Positions 3,330-37,832 of a stretch of DNA of 64,000 nt are shown here, one piece after another. The notes below the pieces were generated by a model. That model did no database searches. It had not been told where the DNA came from and saw only the letters and a program-made list of their open reading frames with translations. How positions within the stretch are numbered: position 1 is the stretch's first letter; the number at the start of each line of letters is the position of its first letter. A program made the translations under genes and the position numbers. Origin of the DNA: Escherichia coli (GTDB lineage: Bacteria > Pseudomonadota > Gammaproteobacteria > Enterobacterales > Enterobacteriaceae); the NCBI RefSeq assembly GCF_002854065.1, contig NZ_CP024151.1; one strand, written 5' to 3'.

Positions 3330-4336
3330 TATTTGCGGTTGCCGGCTCGGGCAAGACCACGCTGCTGATACAGCGGTTGAGTGAGGACCGGCGGACGCTG
3401 ATCCTGACCTTCACCGTGAATAATGAAGCGCATCTCCGGGCGCAGATTATCAGACGTTTTGGCTTTATCCCGGACGGGATCAGGGTGATGACCTGGTTTG
3501 AGTTTCTGCACGGTTTTTGCTTCAGGCCTTTCCTGCAGGAGCAGCTGGCATCGCGTGGGCTGAGCTTCGACCAGCCCCCACCCAGAATACCGCGCACGAA
3601 TGCCCGGCATTATCAGGATCCCGCCGGACGGCTGTATCACCGGAGGCTCGCACACTTACTCACAGCCCGGGGGCTGCTGCCGGATATCCGTACCCGGCTT
3701 GCCCGTTACTACGATGAACTGCTTATCGATGAAGTCCAGGACTTTGCCGGACATGACTTTAATTTTCTGCTGGAGCTCTGCCGCGCGGAAATCACTGTGC
3801 TCTGTTGCGGCGATTTTTATCAACATACCTTTGATACAAGCCATGACGGCAACGTTAATTCAACGCTGCACGATGACATTACGCGATATGAGGCCCGCTT
3901 CGACGCAGCAGGTTTCACGGTTGACCGGGACACGCTCAACCGGACATGGCGTTGCTCAGCTTCAGTGTGCGAGTTTATCACCGGACAACTGAACATCCGT
4001 ATCGCTGCCCATGGGATACATGCCACCCTGATTGAAACGATCACAGATGCAGAGCGCACAGCCACCCTGCACGCCGATAATACGGTGATTAAGCTCTTCT
4101 ATCGTGAACATCACCGTTACGGCTGCTATTCCATGAACTGGGGCGTCAGTAAAGGGCTCGACCACTTTCAGGATGTCTGCATTGTGATGGGATCTTCCCA
4201 CTGGAAGCTTCTGACCCGTCAGGAACTGGCAGCCCTTCCACCGTCGTCCCGTAACAGGCTGTACGTGGCATGCTCACGGGCGCGCGGCAACATTTATTTT
4301 GTTCCCGAAATTCATCTGCGCCGATTCCGGAACTGA
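3314..4336 (+). CDS. Compact UvrD/Rep-like SF1 helicase (340 aa), GajB-like partner of the OLD nuclease
   Basis: Motif I AVAGSGKTTLL, motif II LLIDEVQDF, motif III GDFYQ, motif VI-like VACSRARG; start overlaps the last 16 nt of the OLD gene and its AGGAGG RBS lies inside the OLD 3' end, indicating translational coupling. Confidence 0.75.
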   Translation: MDKRVIFAVAGSGKTTLLIQRLSEDRRTLILTFTVNNEAHLRAQIIRRFGFIPDGIRVMTWFEFLHGFCFRPFLQEQLASRGLSFDQPPPRIPRTNARHYQDPAGRLYHRRLAHLLTARGLLPDIRTRLARYYDELLIDEVQDFAGHDFNFLLELCRAEITVLCCGDFYQHTFDTSHDGNVNSTLHDDITRYEARFDAAGFTVDRDTLNRTWRCSASVCEFITGQLNIRIAAHGIHATLIETITDAERTATLHADNTVIKLFYREHHRYGCYSMNWGVSKGLDHFQDVCIVMGSSHWKLLTRQELAALPPSSRNRLYVACSRARGNIYFVPEIHLRRFRN

Positions 4337-4469
4337 GTCAGCTGCTTCTCAGTCGGGCACAATTCAGAAATAAAGCTGTATGGCCAACGATGTCACTTCA
4401 GGCTGGAAAAGTGCGGATCCGGTTTTGGTGGTTTTCGGATCTGCGGTGGAGAAATGAGAAAACAGGATA

Positions 4470-4620
4470 TGCGCAGCATATCCACATGCCACGCATCTGC
4501 ATAGGGCAGACATACGCATATGTCAGTCATCTGCATATGTTACACCTATACAGACCAGTCCGGCAGGCATATACTGCACATATGTACTCACACATCATGC
4601 ATGATCAGCCGGAGGAACAT
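4470..4620 (+). promoter_or_regulatory. Second vagCD-type operator/promoter region (diverged duplicate)
   Basis: Same family of CATCTGCATATG / GCATATG palindromes as at 940-1030, upstream of the second vagC copy. Confidence 0.45.
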
Positions 4621-4622
4621 CC

Positions 4623-4853
4623 ATGCGCACAGTTTCGATATTTAAAAACGGCAATAACCGCGCCATCCGTCTGCCCCGGGACCTGGATTTTGACGGCGTC
4701 AGCGAGCTGGAGATCGTCCGGGAAGGGGACAGCATCATTCTGCGTCCCGTCCGGCCGACCTGGGGCTCGTTCGCGCAGCTGGACAGGGCCGATCCGGACT
4801 TTATGGCGGAGCGTGAGGATGTGGTCAGCGATGAAGGACGCTTTGAGCCATGA
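4623..4853 (+). CDS. vagC: Second VagC/VapB antitoxin copy
   Basis: 76-aa ORF about 90% identical to the first copy (MRTVSIFKNGNNRAIRLPRDLDFDGVSELEIVREGDSIILRPV...). Confidence 0.8.
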   Translation: MRTVSIFKNGNNRAIRLPRDLDFDGVSELEIVREGDSIILRPVRPTWGSFAQLDRADPDFMAEREDVVSDEGRFEP

Positions 4854-4993
4854 AGAAAACCTGGATGCTCGACACTAACATCTGCTCGTTCATCATGCGC
4901 GAGCAGCCGGCAGCGGTGCTGAAGCGCCTGGAGCAGGCGGTGCTGTCAACGCCACGATGTTTGACCGTTATTTGCCATTTTCATGCCCGCTAA
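4850..4993 (+). pseudogene. vagD: Truncated vagD/vapC (PIN toxin) remnant
   Basis: MKKTWMLDTNICSFIMREQPAAVLKRLEQAVL matches the vagD N-terminus for about 32 codons, then homology ends at about 4945 where IS21-family-derived sequence begins; the reading frame runs into unrelated sequence and stops at 4993. Confidence 0.75.
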
Positions 4994-22515: not shown

Positions 22516-23710
<1,195 letters not shown>

Positions 23711-28462: not shown

Positions 28463-28583
28463 TAGACTGGCCCCCTGAATCTCCAGACAACCAATATCAC
28501 TTAAATAAGTGATAGTCTTAATACTAGTTTTTAGACTAGTCATTGGAGAGCAGATGATTGATGTCTTAGGACCGGAGAAACGT
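28463..28583 (+). mobile_element. IS2 left-end fragment (about 121 bp)
   Basis: TAGACTGGCCCCCTGAATCTCCAGACAACCAATATCACTTAAATAAGTGATAGTC... matches the IS2 left end at 36102-36222, then diverges after ...GGACCGGAGAAACG. Confidence 0.8.
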
Positions 28584-28600
28584 GAATCGCCACGGATAAT

Positions 28601-29236
28601 TTAGACACTTCCGAGCCGTTGATAATACTGGTTTTCATATTCTGTCGGTGACATCTGATCGCTGGAACCATGCCGACGCTTACTGTTATAAAACATTTCG
28701 ATGTAATCAAAAATATCGCTGCGGGCTTCTTCCCGCGTTCCGTAGATCTTTTTCTTTATCCGTTCGCGTTTCAACAACTGGAAAAAGCTTTCTGCAACCG
28801 CATTATCATGGCAGTTACCGCGACGGCTCATGCTGCCCTCCAGGCCGTGTGATTTCAGGAACGACTGCCATTCATGGCTTGTGTACTGACTGCCCTGATC
28901 CGAATGAACCAGCACCTGTTTTTGGGGATTACGCCGCCATACAGCCATCAGCAGTGCGTTCAGGACAATGTCTTTTGTCATCCGGGATTGCATGGACCAG
29001 CCGATAATTTTGCGTGAGAACAGATCAACAACCACGGCAAGATACAGCCAGCCTTCGTGGGTCCTTATGTAGGTTATGTCCGTTACCCAACGCTCATCCG
29101 GAGCATCCGGATTGAACTGTCGCTGAAGCCTGTTGGGCGACACGATACTGGCCTTGCCTTTACGAGCCCGCGGGCTCCGGTATCCGACCTGAGCCTTTAT
29201 CCCGATACGTTTCATCAGTCGCCAGACTCTGTTCAC
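28601..29236 (-). pseudogene. IS3-family transposase OrfB fragment (integrase core, N-terminus missing)
   Basis: ...[33 protein letters not shown]...HSDQGSQYTS... DDE integrase core of an IS3-family OrfB; no orfA upstream. Confidence 0.65.
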
Positions 29237-29324
29237 TCCGCACTGTTGCCCGCTGTCCCGCAGATCTAAATGGATTTTGCGATAACCGTAAGCGTACAGC
29301 GAGGGCCGTATTGACGGGGATGTG

Positions 29325-30026
29325 TTATTCAGCTGGCAGTGCTATGCGCCACGGAAGCAGTTCGCTGACCCGGTTGACCGGCCAGTCTGCTATGACGCCA
29401 AGCACATGGCGAAGGTAGCTTTCTGGATCCACGTCATTCAGTTTGCACGTCCCGATCAGGCTGTACAGTAGCGCTCCCCGCTCACCACCATGGTCAGAGC
29501 CGAAGAACAGGAAGTTTTTACGACCCAGACTGACCGCCCGCAGGGCATTTTCAGCGATGTTGTTGTCGATTTCCACCCAGCCATCGTTCGCATAGTACGT
29601 CAGTGCCGGCCACTGGTTAAGTGCGTACGCGAACGCCTTCGCCAACTCTGAGTGTCGCGACAGGGTCTTCATCTTTTCACGCAACCAGCTTTCCAGGGAT
29701 TTCAACAGCGGTTTCGTTTTTCGCTGACGTTCAGCAAGCCGCTGCTCTGCCGGCATTCCCCTTATATCCGCCTCTATGGCGTACAACTGACCGATCTGCT
29801 CCAGGGCTGCTTCCGTCAGTGCTGACGGGATGCGGACGTGCACATCGTGGATCTTTCGGCGGGCATGAGCCCAGCAGGCAGCTTCCGTTATCCGACCATT
29901 GCGATACAGCTCGTTGAACCCGGCGTACGCATCCGCTTGCAGCACACCGCTGAAGCAAGCAAGATGAGTCTGCGGATGGATGCCTTTTCTGTCCGGGCTG
30001 TAAGCGAACCACACTGCAGGTGCCAA
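29325..30026 (-). pseudogene. IS66-family transposase (TnpC) C-terminal fragment
   Basis: 233-aa ORF ...[13 protein letters not shown]...[63 protein letters not shown]... is the characteristic IS66 TnpC C-terminal region. Confidence 0.7.
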
Positions 30027-30122
30027 CGCTGACCCGGCATTGCGGTCATCACGAACATGATCTTACCCAGCAATAGTGGACACGCGGCTAAGTGAGTAAA
30101 CTCTCAGTCAGAGGTGACTCAC

Positions 30123-30422
30123 ATGACAAAAACAGTATCAACCAGTAAAAAACCCCGTAAACAGCATTCGCCTGAATTTCGCAGTGAAGCCCTGAAGCTT
30201 GCTGAACGCATCGGTGTTACTGCCGCAGCCCGTGAACTCAGCCTGTATGAATCACAGCTCTACAACTGGCGCAGTAAACAGCAAAATCAGCAGACGTCTT
30301 CTGAACGTGAACTGGAGATGTCTACCGAGATTGCACGTCTCAAACGCCAGCTGGCAGAACGGGATGAAGAGCTGGCTATCCTCCAAAAGGCCGCGACATA
30401 CTTCGCGAAGCGCCTGAAATGA
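30123..30422 (+). CDS. insE: IS3 OrfA (InsE)
   Basis: [54 protein letters not shown]... Confidence 0.85.
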
Positions 30423-31237
30423 AGTATGTCTTTATTGAAAAACATCAGGCTGAGTTCAGCATCAAAGCAATGTGCCGCGTGCTCCGGGTGGCCCGCAGCG
30501 GCTGGTATACGTGGTGTCAGCGGCGGACAAGGATAAGCACGCGTCAGCAGTTCCGCCAACACTGCGACAGCGTTGTCCTCGCGGCTTTTACCCGGTCAAA
30601 ACAGCGTTACGGTGCCCCACGCCTGACGGATGAACTGCGTGCTCAGGGTTACCCCTTTAACGTAAAAACCGTGGCGGCAAGCCTGCGCCGTCAGGGACTG
30701 AGGGCAAAGGCCTCCCGGAAGTTCAGCCCGGTCAGCTACCGCGCACACGGCCTGCCTGTGTCAGAAAATCTGTTGGAGCAGGATTTTTACGCCAGTGGCC
30801 CGAACCAGAAGTGGGCAGGAGACATCACGTACTTACGTACAGATGAAGGCTGGCTGTATCTGGCAGTGGTCATTGACCTGTGGTCACGTGCCGTTATTGG
30901 CTGGTCAATGTCGCCACGCATGACGGCGCAACTGGCCTGCGATGCCCTGCAGATGGCGCTGTGGCGGCGTAAGAGGCCCCGGAACGTTATCGTTCACACG
31001 GACCGTGGAGGCCAGTACTGTTCAGCAGATTATCAGGCGCAACTGAAGCGGCATAATCTGCGTGGAAGTATGAGCGCAAAAGGTTGCTGCTACGATAATG
31101 CCTGCGTGGAAAGCTTCTTTCATTCGCTGAAAGTGGAATGTATCCATGGAGAACACTTTATCAGCCGGGAAATAATGCGGGCAACGGTGTTTAATTATAT
31201 CGAATGTGATTACAATCGGTGGCGGCGGCACAGTTGA
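30419..31237 (+). CDS. insF: IS3 OrfB (InsF); ends at a TGA that may be a premature stop
   Basis: DDE integrase core ...[33 protein letters not shown]...; reading frame stops after ...NRWRRHS, with in-frame coding-like sequence continuing to 31285. Confidence 0.8.
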
Positions 31238-31427
31238 TGTGGCGGCCTCAGTCCGGAACAATTTGAAAACCAGAACCTCGCTTAGGCCTGTGTCCATATT
31301 ACGTGGGTAGGATCATTTCGCCTGCCGGGAGTCACATTTTTCTGCATATCTGACACTTTGGTTCCCACTACTTATTTGGTGGACACCACTTTGTCTAATT
31401 CGTCAGATTCTGGGTAATGACTCCAAC

Positions 31428-31931
31428 TTATTGATAGTGTTTTATGTTCAGATAATGCCCGATGACTTTGTCATGCAGCTCCACCGATTTTGAGAACGAC
31501 AGCGACTTCCGTCCCAGCCGTGCCAGGTGCTGCCTCAGATTCAGGTTATGCCGCTCAATTCGCTGCGTATATCGCTTGCTGATTACGTGCAGCTTTCCCT
31601 TCAGGCGGGATTCATACAGCGGCCAGCCATCCGTCATCCATATCACCACGTCAAAGGGTGACAGCAGGCTCATAAGACGCCCCAGCGTCGCCATAGTGCG
31701 TTCACCGAATACGTGCGCAACAACCGTCTTCCGGAGACTGTCATACGCGTAAAACAGCCAGCGCTGGCGCGATTTAGCCCCGACATAGCCCCACTGTTCG
31801 TCCATTTCCGCGCAGACGATGACGTCACTGCCCGGCTGTATGCGCGAGGTTACCGACTGCGGCCTGAGTTTTTTAAGTGACGTAAAATCGTGTTGAGGCC
31901 AACGCCCATAATGCGGGCTGTTGCCCGGCAT
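31428..31931 (-). CDS. insB: IS1 InsB (expressed as an InsAB' frameshift fusion)
   Basis: ...[71 protein letters not shown]... Confidence 0.9.
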
Positions 31932-32125
31932 CCAACGCCATTCATGGCTATATCAATGATTTTCTGGTGCGTACCGGGTTGAGAAGCGGTGTAAGTGAAC
32001 TGCAGTTGCCATGTTTTACGGCAGTGAGAGCAGAGATAGCGCTGATGTCCGGCGGTGCTTTTGCCGTTACGCACCACCCCGTCAGTAGCTGAACAGGAGG
32101 GACAGCTGATAGAAACAGAAGCCAC
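31850..32125 (-). CDS. insA: IS1 InsA
   Basis: [58 protein letters not shown]... Confidence 0.9.
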
Positions 32126-32383
32126 TGGAGCACCTCAAAAACACCATCATACACTAAATCAGTAAGTTGGCAGCATCACCAGATTCTGACCAGACGGTTC
32201 AGGCTGTACGCTTACGGTTGTCGTGAAGGAGGGGGAAGACCATCTCATCGCTTACTGATGTTCCTGTTACTATATCTATTGAATCCTGGCTATAAGTTCG
32301 CTGTTTAAAGAATTATATGAATAGCACCAATTAATAAGTTAATATTAAAAAGAAGACAGACCTTCTAAATAAACGCATTGAAT

Positions 32384-32641
32384 CTATGTTCCCTTGTGAG
32401 TGTTTTTACGTTTGGCGGGAGGCCTGGAACCTCGGGATTTAACTTTTCTTTTTATATTTTTGATAAAATCATCAATAGAAAACTGAATCGTCTCTGATAA
32501 ATACTGTTGAGCTATATCTGTACTCTGTTTTTCTAAATCAGAAGCTTTCTTTGTTTCAAGAACAGATTTGATTAACTCCTTACGTTGTGTACACCAAATC
32601 TCGTCAGATGAACAGTATTTTTTATTTTCGTGTTTGTTCAT
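32384..32641 (-). CDS. Hypothetical small basic protein (85 aa)
   Basis: ORF immediately downstream of the sulfatase gene on the same strand; Lys-rich; no recognised family. Confidence 0.3.
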   Translation of the reverse strand: MNKHENKKYCSSDEIWCTQRKELIKSVLETKKASDLEKQSTDIAQQYLSETIQFSIDDFIKNIKRKVKSRGSRPPAKRKNTHKGT

Positions 32642-32709
32642 TATTTATTGCTCTAACTGATTTATTTCCCTATATCCAGGGAGTAGATATATCTACTCCC
32701 TGCTTATTA

Positions 32710-34407
32710 TCATTTCACGTTAGTTAAAGATTTTTTTATATTCTCAAATTTGGCTTGGTTGATATCACTGATCGGTTTTTGACTTGACGTGATGAAGTCA
32801 ATCATAACAGCCTTCATATTCTTAACCACATCAGGATGGGATGCAGAGAGATCTTTAGTTTGTTGCAGATCGTTGATATCGTACAGAGCTAGTTTATTCT
32901 CTGCATAGGTGTAAACCAGAGAATAATCGTTGCTTCTTACAGTGTATGCAAACTGGCTTAAGTCTTCTGTATGTGGGTTGTGCGGATAATCATCAGACTC
33001 TTTTCTCACGAATTTATGATATCCGTTCCAGAATGCAGTGTTCTCTTCGTCCCACCAGTGAGAATAAGAGGTAATCCAGGACAGATATTTGTGAGGTTCG
33101 CCAGCTGCAGATTTCTTATCAGCTCCTTTCTGTACATATGGCAATAATGATACACCATCTAGTTTCAGAGAAGCAGGGATCTTGATATCTGCGGCATCTA
33201 AAGCGGTCGGATAGAAGTCCATTGATGAAACCAGTTTGTCATAATCACCCGTTTTCAGCTTGCCATTCCACCACATGAACATAGGTGTATGCATACCACC
33301 CGGATACGGTTGGCCTTTGTAACCAGCCTGCGCACCATTCAGTGGCAGTGGACCATCAATTACAGCACCGTTATCAGAGGTGAACAGAATGATGGTGTTG
33401 TCGTACTGACCTTTTTCCTTAAGTGTATTCAGGATCTTTTTAACCCCCTGGTCAACGGAGTAAATTGACGCATAATAGTTATCAGCAGTCTTGCTACCAG
33501 TGTTGAATTTCTCCTGATAGTTTTTAGGCGCAGGCTGATCGTTAGGCAGGTGTGGTGCACTGTATGCCAGATAAATCATAAATGGCTGTTCCAGTTTGCT
33601 TGCACGGTCAATTACACCAATTGCTTCATCAGTTAATTGATCACTAATGTACCCTTCAGCTTTAATGTTTTCACGGTTACGGAACAATGACGGGGAGTTA
33701 TAAAGTGAAACGCCGGATGCGTGATAGCCCATGAAGTAGTTGAAGCCACGATTCTGAGGTTGCCATTCTTCTGCGGAGAAGGTGGTGAAGTTATCGTGGT
33801 AGTCACGGGTTTGTTTTTCTTCAGGCACACCTACGTTGCTGATTTTTGATAAGTGCCACTTACCGATTGCTGCAGTGTAATAACCATGATTCTGAAGTAA
33901 TTCAGACAGGAATGTTTCTTCCAGAGGGATACCATCCTGTGCATCAGAATTTGAATATACACCGAAGCGAGCAGGAGCTCGCGCCGTCAGGATTGCGGCA
34001 CGTGAAGGGCCAGAGACACCGTGTGCAACATAGCCGTTAGTGAATTTTACACCTTCGTCCATCAGGGCCGCTAATGTTGGAGTGGATTTTTTTGCAGCTT
34101 CAATTGCTTTATCAATACCTATTTTGTATGTATCAACAACATTTCGGTTATCCATCGTTTTAGGGTCAAATGAACTATCATCAAAAGGCAATTGTCCATA
34201 CCCTAAATCATCCATTGTTAAAACAATGATATTTGGCTTACCTTTAGTGCTGTATTCCGTCGGCGTGAAGTCCGCAAAGGCAACATTGGTTTTTGTTGCT
34301 TTGAGCTTAACATCATCTGCTGCATTTGCAGTACTCATCATCAGACCAGATGCTAATATAAGTGATATTGATGAGTTAAGCAGTTTTTTATTTAACTGAT
34401 GTTCCAT
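32710..34407 (-). CDS. Periplasmic sulfatase (alkaline-phosphatase superfamily), Ser-type
   Basis: Signal peptide; metal-binding N-terminal block IIVLTMDDLGYGQ; formylglycine-site motif S-G-P-S-R-AAILTAR with Ser rather than Cys; about 565 aa. Confidence 0.75.
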   Translation of the reverse strand: MEHQLNKKLLNSSISLILASGLMMSTANAADDVKLKATKTNVAFADFTPTEYSTKGKPNIIVLTMDDLGYGQLPFDDSSFDPKTMDNRNVVDTYKIGIDKAIEAAKKSTPTLAALMDEGVKFTNGYVAHGVSGPSRAAILTARAPARFGVYSNSDAQDGIPLEETFLSELLQNHGYYTAAIGKWHLSKISNVGVPEEKQTRDYHDNFTTFSAEEWQPQNRGFNYFMGYHASGVSLYNSPSLFRNRENIKAEGYISDQLTDEAIGVIDRASKLEQPFMIYLAYSAPHLPNDQPAPKNYQEKFNTGSKTADNYYASIYSVDQGVKKILNTLKEKGQYDNTIILFTSDNGAVIDGPLPLNGAQAGYKGQPYPGGMHTPMFMWWNGKLKTGDYDKLVSSMDFYPTALDAADIKIPASLKLDGVSLLPYVQKGADKKSAAGEPHKYLSWITSYSHWWDEENTAFWNGYHKFVRKESDDYPHNPHTEDLSQFAYTVRSNDYSLVYTYAENKLALYDINDLQQTKDLSASHPDVVKNMKAVMIDFITSSQKPISDINQAKFENIKKSLTNVK

Positions 34408-34502
34408 ATGGTATTCCTTCTGAGTTGCATCACGAACATTTATTAATAATAAAAGCCTCTGATATAAATAAAAACTATGTAAATCGTTTAAATGGATACC
34501 TG

Positions 34503-35639
34503 TTAAAACTGATACATCATACCAACAGCAAGTATATTATCGGTTGCAACTCCAGCCTTTTTGGTAAATTCGCTTTCATCAATAAGGTTAATTTTGTAAT
34601 CAATAAGAAGTGACATGTTTTTGTTCAGAAAGTAGTTTGCGCCAACATCAATATACTCAACAAGAGACTGATCGCCATAGTTTACTATTCCACCTTTAAC
34701 ATCCATCCCTTTGGACTGAACGTAAGCCAGTGAAGGACGCAGGCCGAAATCAAACATATACTGAGCCACAACTTCAATATTCCGTGCTTTATCTGCGATG
34801 CCTGCGCTACCAAATGGAGTCATATTTCGGGTTTCAGAGTAGTCAGCTGCCAGATACAGGTCATTATCATTATACTTGACCCCAACACCTGCAAACTCCG
34901 CATGTTTTCCCCCGGCAATCCAGCGAGGCGTAATAACTTCTTTTCCTTCTGAATCTTTCGATGTCATGAAACGTTTACGGCCTTCTTTTTCCTGCAGACT
35001 GGTTCTGTCGGCATTAGTGTAAGCGGCAACGATTCCAAAACCTTCATAGTCATAGCTTACGGAGAAACCATATCCATCACCATTAGCTTCAAGTAAATTA
35101 TCACGGTCATTTTTACCCTGATATTGAGCAGAAAAAGTAAGTCCATCAACAAGCCCGAAGAAATCTGTATTGCGCCAGGTCAGAACTCCGGTTGTTCTGC
35201 CGGTCATATAGTTATCAGAGTAAGTCCAGCTGTCACCACCAAAGTCCGGAAGTACGTCAGTCAGAGCCCCCACATCATAGGCAACACCATAGTTTCGCCC
35301 ATAATCAAGTGAACCGAGTATATTGTGGCGAATACCTGCAAATGCCAGACGATTTTTATCGTTGCGTACTTCACTTTCTGTCTTAAACCCCAGGAACTGG
35401 TATTCCCACTGACCAAAGCCAGTCAGGCTCTCATTAATTTGTGTTTCGCCTTTGAAACCAAGACGTGCAAATGTTCTGTCGCCATCCATAGAACCATCAG
35501 AGATGTAATGACGGGCTTTAACGCGACCATAAAAATCCAGTTTATTACCGTCTTTATTATAGATTTCTGCTGCCTGTGTTGCCTCACACAGCATTAATGC
35601 AGAAACGACAGAGCACACAACCACACTTAATTTTCGCAT
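34503..35639 (-). CDS. Outer-membrane general porin (OmpC/OmpF/PhoE family)
   Basis: Signal peptide then AEIYNKDGNKLDFYGRVKARHY..., and the C-terminal ...AVGMMYQF aromatic terminus typical of 16-strand porins; start set at MRKLSVVV inside the track ORF. Confidence 0.8.
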   Translation of the reverse strand: MRKLSVVVCSVVSALMLCEATQAAEIYNKDGNKLDFYGRVKARHYISDGSMDGDRTFARLGFKGETQINESLTGFGQWEYQFLGFKTESEVRNDKNRLAFAGIRHNILGSLDYGRNYGVAYDVGALTDVLPDFGGDSWTYSDNYMTGRTTGVLTWRNTDFFGLVDGLTFSAQYQGKNDRDNLLEANGDGYGFSVSYDYEGFGIVAAYTNADRTSLQEKEGRKRFMTSKDSEGKEVITPRWIAGGKHAEFAGVGVKYNDNDLYLAADYSETRNMTPFGSAGIADKARNIEVVAQYMFDFGLRPSLAYVQSKGMDVKGGIVNYGDQSLVEYIDVGANYFLNKNMSLLIDYKINLIDESEFTKKAGVATDNILAVGMMYQF

Positions 35640-36147
35640 AAAAAAATCCCCTGTGCACATTTTTAGTATGGTTTTAAAAATTAAACTATGGCGAAAAAAT
35701 TATCACCATGCAAATATGTAACAAAATATTTCTCGGTGATCTATGTTGTTGTTTTTATTTGAGGTTGTATATTTTCTAGTGTATTTGACTTTTCTTTCTT
35801 AAGTGTTATTTCTCGACCTTTATCACAGAACCATCTCCCTGGATATCCCCATAACATTGCATGAAAAGCAAGTTTTACCAATCTTGATTTTCAGTGTTAA
35901 ATAAGATTAATAACTGTAATTCTGCAAAAAAAAGAACACCATATGTAGTATGACTACGTATTCCACTCTGTTCGTTCACGGACTGGCATCGAAGTCTGAG
36001 GTGTACTGGCAATAGCGGATACAGTCATTTGTTCTTTTTTTAAGCATTCATCCGATGATACTTTTCCTGAATGCTACCGGAGTGGTATTCCCCTGCCGTG
36101 ATAGACTGGCCCCCTGAATCTCCAGACAACCAATATCACTTAAATAA

Positions 36148-36558
36148 GTGATAGTCTTAATACTAGTTTTTAGACTAGTCATTGGAGAGCAGATGATTGA
36201 TGTCTTAGGACCGGAGAAACGCAGACGGCGTACTACACAGGAAAAGATCGCTATTGTTCAGCAGAGTTTTGAACCGGGAATGACGGTCTCCCTTGTAGCC
36301 CGGCAACACGGTGTGGCAGCCAGCCAGCTATTTCTCTGGCGCAAGCAATACCAGGAGGGAAGTCTTACTGCTGTGGCCGCAGGAGAACAGGTCGTTCCTG
36401 CCTCTGAACTTGCTGCTGCCATGAAGCAGATTAAAGAACTCCAGCGCCTGCTCGGCAAAAAAACGATGGAAAATGAACTCCTTAAAGAAGCCGTTGAATA
36501 TGGGCGTGCAAAAAAGTGGATAGCGCACGCGCCCTTATTGCCCGGGGATGGGGAGTAA
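36148..36558 (+). CDS. insC: IS2 OrfA (InsC)
   Basis: Same 136-aa protein as at 17452-17862. Confidence 0.9.
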
Positions 36559-37421
36559 GCTTAGTCAGCCGTTGTCTCCGGGTGTCGCGTGCGCAGTTGC
36601 ACGTCATTCTCAGACGAACCGATGACTGGAAAGATGGTCGCCGCAGCCGTCACTCAGATGATATGGATGTACTTCTCCGTATACACCATGTTATCGGAGA
36701 GCTGCCCACGTATGGTTATCGTCGGGTATGGGCGCTGCTTCGCAGACAGGCCGAACTTGATGGTATGCCTGCGATCAATGCCAAACGTGTTTACCGGATC
36801 ATGTGCCAGAATGCGCTGTTGCTTGAGCGAAAAACCGCTGTACCGCCATCGAAGCGGGCACATACTGGCAAAGTGGCCGTGAAAGAAAGCAATCAACGAT
36901 GGTGCTCTGACGGGTTCGAGTTCCGCTGTGATAACGGAGAAAAACTGCGAGTCACGTTCGCGCTGGACTGCTGTGACCGTGAGGCACTGTACTGGGCGGT
37001 CACTACGGGCGGCTTCGACAGTGAAACAGTACAGGACGTCATGCTGGGAGCGGTTGAACGCCGCTTCGGCAACGAGCTTCCGGCGTCTCCAGTAGAGTGG
37101 CTGACGGATAATGGTTCATGCTACCGGGCTAATGAAACACGGCAGTTTGCCCGGATGTTGGGGCTTGAACCGAAGAACACGGCGGTGCGGAGTCCGGAGA
37201 GTAACGGCATAGCAGAGAGCTTCGTGAAAACGATAAAGCGTGACTACATCAGTGTCATGCCTAAACCAGACGGGTTAACGGCAGCAAAGAACCTTGCAGA
37301 GGCGTTCGAGCATTATAACGAATGGCATCCGCATAGTGCACTGGGTTATCGCTCGCCACGGGAATATCTACGGCAGCAGGCCAGTAATGGGTTAAGTGAT
37401 AACAGGTGTCTGGAAATATAG
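36516..37421 (+). CDS. insD: IS2 OrfB (InsD)
   Basis: 301-aa DDE transposase ORF overlapping orfA in the -1 frame. Confidence 0.9.
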
Positions 37422-37832
37422 GGGCAAATCCAGTATCCGGATGTGCTGCCAGCCTTCTCAGTTAACCGATGTTTTCCGGGCTTTTTGCCATACTGAGGAC
37501 TGATAACGTATTCCTGGTCGTAAAACCCGTCAATATGCGCCGGGGCATCGACAAAACTGACACAGTACGTCCGGAAAGAACTTAACGCTGCATGGCACGA
37601 CAATGCTGCCTTTGTCTTTACCAACAAGGCTCGTTCCCGCATAAAAGTTCTACGCCGGGATAAACATGGCGTATGGCTGCGTCAGGCCTTCACTACTTCA
37701 CACCGGAAGTCTTCCAGCCTGACACGAATATACCGTCCGGGCTCTTTCGCAGGTGCAAACAGTTTTTCACATTCGGCGAATGTCATTTCTGAATCCTGGT
37801 AACGCAACCACTGAACCGGCATATTACCGGGT

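Follow-up and report, generated by a model that had tools for sequence, protein, structure and literature searches.

Does the intact target-site duplication around an IS1 copy tell how, and when, the element arrived? The question is raised by a stretch of 64,000 nucleotides from Escherichia coli (contig NZ_CP024151.1, hereafter the window), in which a sequence-only reading had described IS1 as a late and simple insertion. With high confidence, the locus can be attributed to one transposition of an IS1A-type IS1 into the left end, already defective, of an ISEc8 copy that adjoins a porin-sulfatase module on an IncF-type E. coli plasmid. Our sequence comparisons revealed no evidence contradicting a single insertion.

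IS1 and its target-site duplication

The element has the length and the ends typical of the IS1 family. Its imperfect terminal inverted repeats of about 23 bp lie 768 bp apart, and its boundaries are the same as those of the mobile_genetic_element features of IS1A, IS1B, IS1C and IS1I in MG1655. The following features were recognised (positions are those of the window):

31413..32180, minus strand: complete IS1 of the IS1A type, 768 bp
31413..31435: right inverted repeat (IRR), GGTAATGACTCCAACTTATTGAT, an exact match to the canonical end
32158..32180: left inverted repeat (IRL), the reverse complement of GGTGATGCTGCCAACTTACTGAT, also an exact match
31850..32125, minus strand: insA, 91 aa, GTG start, M59I relative to K-12 InsA1
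31428..31931, minus strand: insB' frame, an ORF of 167 aa that aligns with the C-terminal portion of the IS1 transposase model of NCBIfam
31868..31874, minus strand: A6C (AAAAAAC), the predicted programmed -1 frameshift motif joining insA to insB' (IS1 nt 307-313 read from IRL)
31405..31412: left copy of the 8-bp target-site duplication, AGATTCTG (ISEc8 nt 35-28)
32181..32188: right copy of the 8-bp target-site duplication, AGATTCTG

The NCBIfam profile NF033558 (transpos_IS1) is matched by both InsA (profile positions 1-81) and the InsB' frame (positions 75-199), and the two frames and the A6C motif are all intact. On these sequence characters the element is a member of the IS1 family and of the IS1A type. 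It resembles IS1A of E. coli K-12 MG1655 in its length of 768 bp, its identical terminal inverted repeats, its insA/insB' organization with A6C and 767 of its 768 nucleotides, but differs from it by a single substitution (537T, the element being read on the plus strand, which gives InsA M59I), by its plasmid location and by its position inside an ISEc8 remnant.

The two copies of AGATTCTG directly adjoin both IS1 ends. The raw repeat reaches 9 nt (CAGATTCTG, 31404-31412 and 32180-32188) when the terminal C of IS1 at 32180 is counted, and "an 8-bp duplication with a 768-bp IS1" and "a 9-bp duplication with a 767-bp IS1" describe one identical string. The first description is preferred because a length of 768 bp and a terminal ...CATCACC are found in every K-12 IS1 copy examined. 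According to PMC12903888, IS1 yields duplications of 8 or 9 bp. Of those recovered in a large trapping experiment, 78% measured 9 bp and 22% measured 8 bp, and natural events include 983 with 9-bp and 362 with 8-bp duplications (PMC10359306). The length observed here is therefore unremarkable, 8 bp being a normal minority outcome (about 22%) that is also seen at crl::IS1I of MG1655, whose duplication, TGAAGGTA, is likewise one of 8 bp and not of 9 bp. Unlike that copy, which disrupts crl (annotated as two gene fragments), IS1 of the window lies in dead IS DNA and disrupts nothing. Target choice by IS1 is loose and AT-biased, with recurrent sites (PMC10359306). The duplicated 8-mer has a GC content of 37.5% within a surrounding 200 bp at 46%, a moderately AT-rich target compatible with this loose preference.

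A -1 frameshift between insA and insB' yields the transposase InsAB', which binds the inverted repeats at both ends (PMC12903888). Following this established mechanism, InsAB' of the inserting copy would have been produced through a -1 frameshift at A6C and would have attached both ends of IS1 at target phosphates with an 8-bp stagger, after which gap repair would have duplicated AGATTCTG (ISEc8 nt 28-35). IS1 is also described as mainly replicative, both inter- and intramolecularly (PMC12903888), and a cointegrate with a donor replicon, later resolved by homologous recombination between the IS1 copies, would leave exactly the same final sequence as a simple insertion. Such a replicative route is nevertheless unlikely here, as the window contains neither a second IS1 nor donor-derived DNA.

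Recognisable IS ends were then located across the window and the flanks were read for each element:

3-822: IS26, flanks CTCCACAG/GAAAACAG, no duplication, as seen in pPM4-5-103k, a collinear relative (the window includes no more than 2 nt of the left flank)
15420-16614: IS5/ISKpn26 copy a (IS5a), flanks CTAA/TTAA, no duplication
22516-23710: IS5/ISKpn26 copy b (IS5b), flanks TTAG/CTGG, no duplication
30058..31315, plus strand: IS3, 1258 bp, replacing ISEc8 nt 125-1672, flanks ACA/TTT, no duplication
36102-37432: IS2, flanks CGTGA/GTATC, no duplication
ISEc8 (fragmented): outer flanks CGATAACC/GGTTGTCG, no duplication

The flanks of IS26, both IS5 copies, IS2, IS3 and ISEc8 are thus all mismatched, and the view that only IS1 retains an intact duplication in the window holds. 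The left flank of IS5a (CTAA) is the reverse complement of the left flank of IS5b (TTAG), which prompted us to consider an intramolecular replicative inversion between these inverted copies. It was rejected: the intervening segment is collinear with pPM4-5-103k, which carries only IS5b with the same flanks, and the match likely arose by chance given the YTAR targets of these elements.

The target DNA and its empty sites

Alignment of the 2,442-bp ISEc8 of E. coli GE3 to the window identifies the DNA into which IS1 inserted. What had been taken for a spacer between IS3 and the sulfatase island is instead the 132-bp left end of ISEc8, a member of the IS66 family:

29288..30057, minus strand: right-hand fragment of ISEc8, nt 2442-1673, including the 3' part of the transposase gene
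31316..31412, minus strand: left-end remnant, nt 124-28, 100% identical to ISEc8 of GE3
32189..32215, minus strand: terminal 27 nt (nt 1-27), separated from the remainder by IS1, with the tip GTAAGCG that is typical of the family (minus-strand reading) at its end

Window positions 32215-32189 and 31412-31316 together reproduce nt 1-124 of the GE3 element at 100% identity, and this identity assigns the target to ISEc8. IS1 duplicated nt 28-35, just inside the GTAAGCG end. While the 97 + 27 (+8) nt around IS1, tip included, are those of the GE3 element, the window copy as a whole is wrecked: its left end is split by IS1, and nt 125-1672 (1,548 bp) are missing exactly at the position of IS3, with loss of tnpA, tnpB and the 5' part of the transposase gene. 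No 8-bp ISEc8 duplication spans the whole nest, its outer flanks CGATAACC and GGTTGTCG being different. These flanks (29280-29287 and 32216-32223) are near reverse complements (7/8) rather than direct repeats, which is probably a coincidence.

The neighboring module, the sulfatase island, is transcribed toward IS1 and is not interrupted by it:

32384..35660, minus strand: sulfatase island
32384-32641, minus strand: hypothetical protein of 85 aa
32710-34407, minus strand: sulfatase-family protein
34503-35660, minus strand: OmpC-like porin

The porin, sulfatase and hypothetical genes (from 35660 down to 32384) stop 204 bp short of IS1, and a scan found no terminator-like site on the minus strand between the island and IS1, although it was too crude to support transcriptional read-through into the element. 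The insertion hit no functional gene. Since no gene is disrupted, it was most likely selectively neutral.

The restored junction (562 bp, IS1 and one repeat copy having been removed in silico) was searched in 5,426 complete E. coli genomes, and 35 records contain at least 80% of it. In nine of these, all plasmids, the match is split by exactly 776 bp, corresponding to IS1 plus 8 bp. In about 25 chromosomes and one plasmid, it is uninterrupted, with 99.8-100% identity. The loci of E. coli GE3 and of plasmid EC100 unnamed2, for example, read ...TCGTCAGATTCTGACCAGACGG... with one copy of AGATTCTG. PLSDB adds further occupied plasmids together with a second unoccupied one, pSTEC636_3. In both EC100 unnamed2 and pSTEC636_3 the IS3/ISEc8 junction is present, IS1 is absent and the restored junction is contiguous. 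The comparison proposed in the sequence-only reading, that of the restored junction with relatives, therefore yields an empty site in about 25 chromosomes and two plasmids. The 8-mers flanking the 768-bp IS1 (31405-31412 and 32181-32188) are borne out as a real target-site duplication by the end mapping and by these empty sites, and the insertion looks simple, as had been described. The IS1 insertion is a real transposition event and not a product of recombination.

In the chromosomes, the sequence to the left of the junction runs into the tnpA-tnpB-tnpC genes of an intact ISEc8 adjoining the hypothetical, sulfatase and porin genes. In the GE3 chromosome (L001, 1-12562), this ISEc8-hypothetical-sulfatase-porin module is found a few kb from hlyD (alpha-haemolysin secretion), amid IS fragments. 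This setting suggests a pathogenicity-island-like region, from which the plasmid module probably derived.

Order of events and spread among plasmids

Three states of the locus could be read directly. An intact ISEc8 with the module, carrying neither IS3 nor IS1, is found in about 25 chromosomes. The IS3/ISEc8 nest without IS1 occurs in exactly one plasmid among the 5,426 complete genomes and in one plasmid with an IncX1 backbone in PLSDB. The nest with IS1 is present in 10 plasmids among the same genomes, and in records specific to PLSDB. Because IS1-free states exist both in chromosomes and in plasmids that already carry IS3, IS1 arrived after ISEc8 and after the IS3 event. Divergence of the flanks from the window runs in parallel with this order, with 15 mismatches in 3,922 bp for the GE3 chromosome, 6 mismatches and one gap in about 7.5 kb for EC100, and one mismatch and one gap in 9.4 kb for p2974-D.

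These states would be explained by the following succession. ISEc8 would have adjoined the module, as it still does in chromosomes, before IS3 entered it with loss of 1,548 bp; IS1 would then have inserted into the remaining left end, and the IS1-bearing module would have spread among plasmids and rearranged further. The later changes would include the arrival of IS5a, accompanied by a deletion, the loss of a protease gene through an IS2-IS2 deletion and, in one lineage, an IS1B-like conversion patch.

At least 14 plasmids, of various sources and countries, share this insertion, with IS1 in one orientation and carrying one diagnostic SNP. Human, swine, cecum and river-water samples are the recorded sources of occupied plasmids, and the country fields that were read gave China and Panama. 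The IS1 sequence is identical in the four plasmids compared (L003, L004, L005 and the window). On the closest relative plasmid, the replication genes are those of a RepB-family protein and of IncFII RepA, and tra genes, an autotransporter gene and ompP are also present.

Could these copies be independent insertions at an IS1 hot spot? Recurrent, AT-biased targets are a property of IS1 (PMC10359306), and plasmid C6 p2 and N24 carry, at the same site, an IS1 annotated as IS1B-type. However, every copy examined shows the same position, the same orientation and the same 8-bp duplication, none of them having another duplication length or orientation, and all occupied sites lie within the same IS3/ISEc8 nest. 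The C6 p2 copy itself (L007, Panama; 4098-4865), at the identical site, is a mosaic: IS1B-type bases are confined to 325-471, while IS1A-type bases are kept at 65, 507 and 642 together with the lineage-specific 537T, and position 67 shows a private change. This pattern indicates gene conversion of the same ancestral copy by another IS1 of the host rather than an independent insertion, and because 537T is retained in spite of the IS1B-like patch, it points to one ancestral insertion. Separate landings at this site are thus very improbable.

The order of IS3 and IS1 could also be questioned if EC100 unnamed2 and pSTEC636_3 had lost IS1 by precise excision, as excision between the duplicated 8-mers would recreate the empty site exactly and these plasmids would then be uninformative. 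Precise excision of IS1 is very rare, however, and would have been needed separately in two unrelated backbones (an untyped replicon and IncX1). Moreover, the EC100 flanks are slightly more divergent than those of the IS1-bearing plasmids, and no record among the complete E. coli genomes shows IS1 in an intact ISEc8. We consider such losses hardly credible, and retain the order in which IS3 preceded IS1.

IS1 was not the last element to arrive. IS5a matches IS5b at 100% identity and lies in the opposite orientation. It truncates an IS2 (window 16615-17908) and removed about 198 bp, including the left end of this IS2 and its left CTGGC duplication. In pPM4-5-103k, which already has IS1, IS5a is absent and the corresponding IS2 is intact with its 5-bp duplication CTGGC. 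The IS5a junction was found in only one of the 5,426 complete E. coli genomes (NZ_CP080082.1). As it is missing from an IS1-bearing relative and present in only one other record, IS5a is younger than IS1 and, by this comparison, is the youngest IS event seen in the window. IS1 is therefore late in the sense that it followed ISEc8 and IS3, as had been proposed, but it is neither private to this plasmid nor the newest element.

The intact duplication had also been taken to date IS1. This does not hold, since IS5a has no duplication and is younger than IS1, which has one. The missing duplications of the other elements are due to adjacent deletions or recombination and not to age, given the losses of 1,548 bp at IS3, about 198 bp at IS5a and 351 bp at IS2 (the IS2 at 36102 replaces 351 bp found in GE3). 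The presence or absence of a duplication consequently does not order IS events; an intact one means that the IS has undergone no rearrangement since landing, and is no proof of a recent landing. Every other IS in the window being involved in rearrangements, one might suppose that the 8-mers match by coincidence and that recombination, or a larger rearrangement ending there, brought IS1 to its place. The chance of an 8/8 match at a fixed position is 4^-8 = 1.5e-5, however, and this explanation is refuted by the restored sequence running uninterrupted, as ...TCGTCAGATTCTGACCAGACGG... with its single 8-mer, in about 27 independent records.

Several other rearrangements were observed around the locus. 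Compared with L004 (17455-23895), the window (28463-29287) is without a segment of about 4.9 kb that contains the gene for a serine protease autotransporter of the S6 family (SPATE-like). Two IS2-type repeats flank this segment in pPM4-5-103k and p2974-D, and its loss looks like a deletion by IS2-IS2 recombination. In pDETEC81 (L005, NZ_CP116170.1; 4100-4233), the right end of ISKpn26 abuts CTAA (equivalent to window 31395-31398; ISEc8 nt 45-42), 6 bp to the left of the left AGATTCTG and 14 bp to the left of IS1. The region from the IS5 copy adjacent to the autotransporter up to CTAA is deleted, including IS3, while IS1 and both 8-mers are kept. In pSX5G-122k (L006, NZ_MZ367885.1; 4098-4867), IS1 measures 770 bp: single bases are inserted at two places and several others are substituted. 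Neither the IS1 genes nor the IS3 genes are annotated as intact there. These oddities probably reflect sequencing or assembly errors rather than biology.

IS clusters and the left end of ISEc8

The insertion is already known biology, an ordinary behavior of a thoroughly known family. The window is a typical example of the nested IS clusters of F-type virulence and resistance plasmids, in which IS within IS bound accessory modules and later deletions erase the duplications; nothing distinctive separates it from them. This IS1 copy is of value as a lineage marker, a synapomorphy of one family of plasmid-borne porin-sulfatase modules in E. coli, and for the relative order that it gives to IS events; otherwise it is an annotation detail.

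Another junction in the same part of ISEc8 was observed outside E. coli. In Klebsiella oxytoca pKOX71_2 (L011, 3990-4250) and five other Klebsiella plasmids, an IS3-like element of about 90% identity is joined to an ISEc8-like left end at nt 128, just 4 bp away from where IS3 meets ISEc8 in E. coli (nt 124). The junction could be either an old shared one or an independent hit at nearly the same spot. The left end of about 130 bp thus includes junctions with IS1 (nt 28-35), ISKpn26 (nt 42-45, in pDETEC81), IS3 (nt 124) and the IS3-like element of Klebsiella (nt 128). That it might be a preferred landing pad for insertion sequences, and not merely tolerated junk, is a tentative and rather doubtful suggestion.
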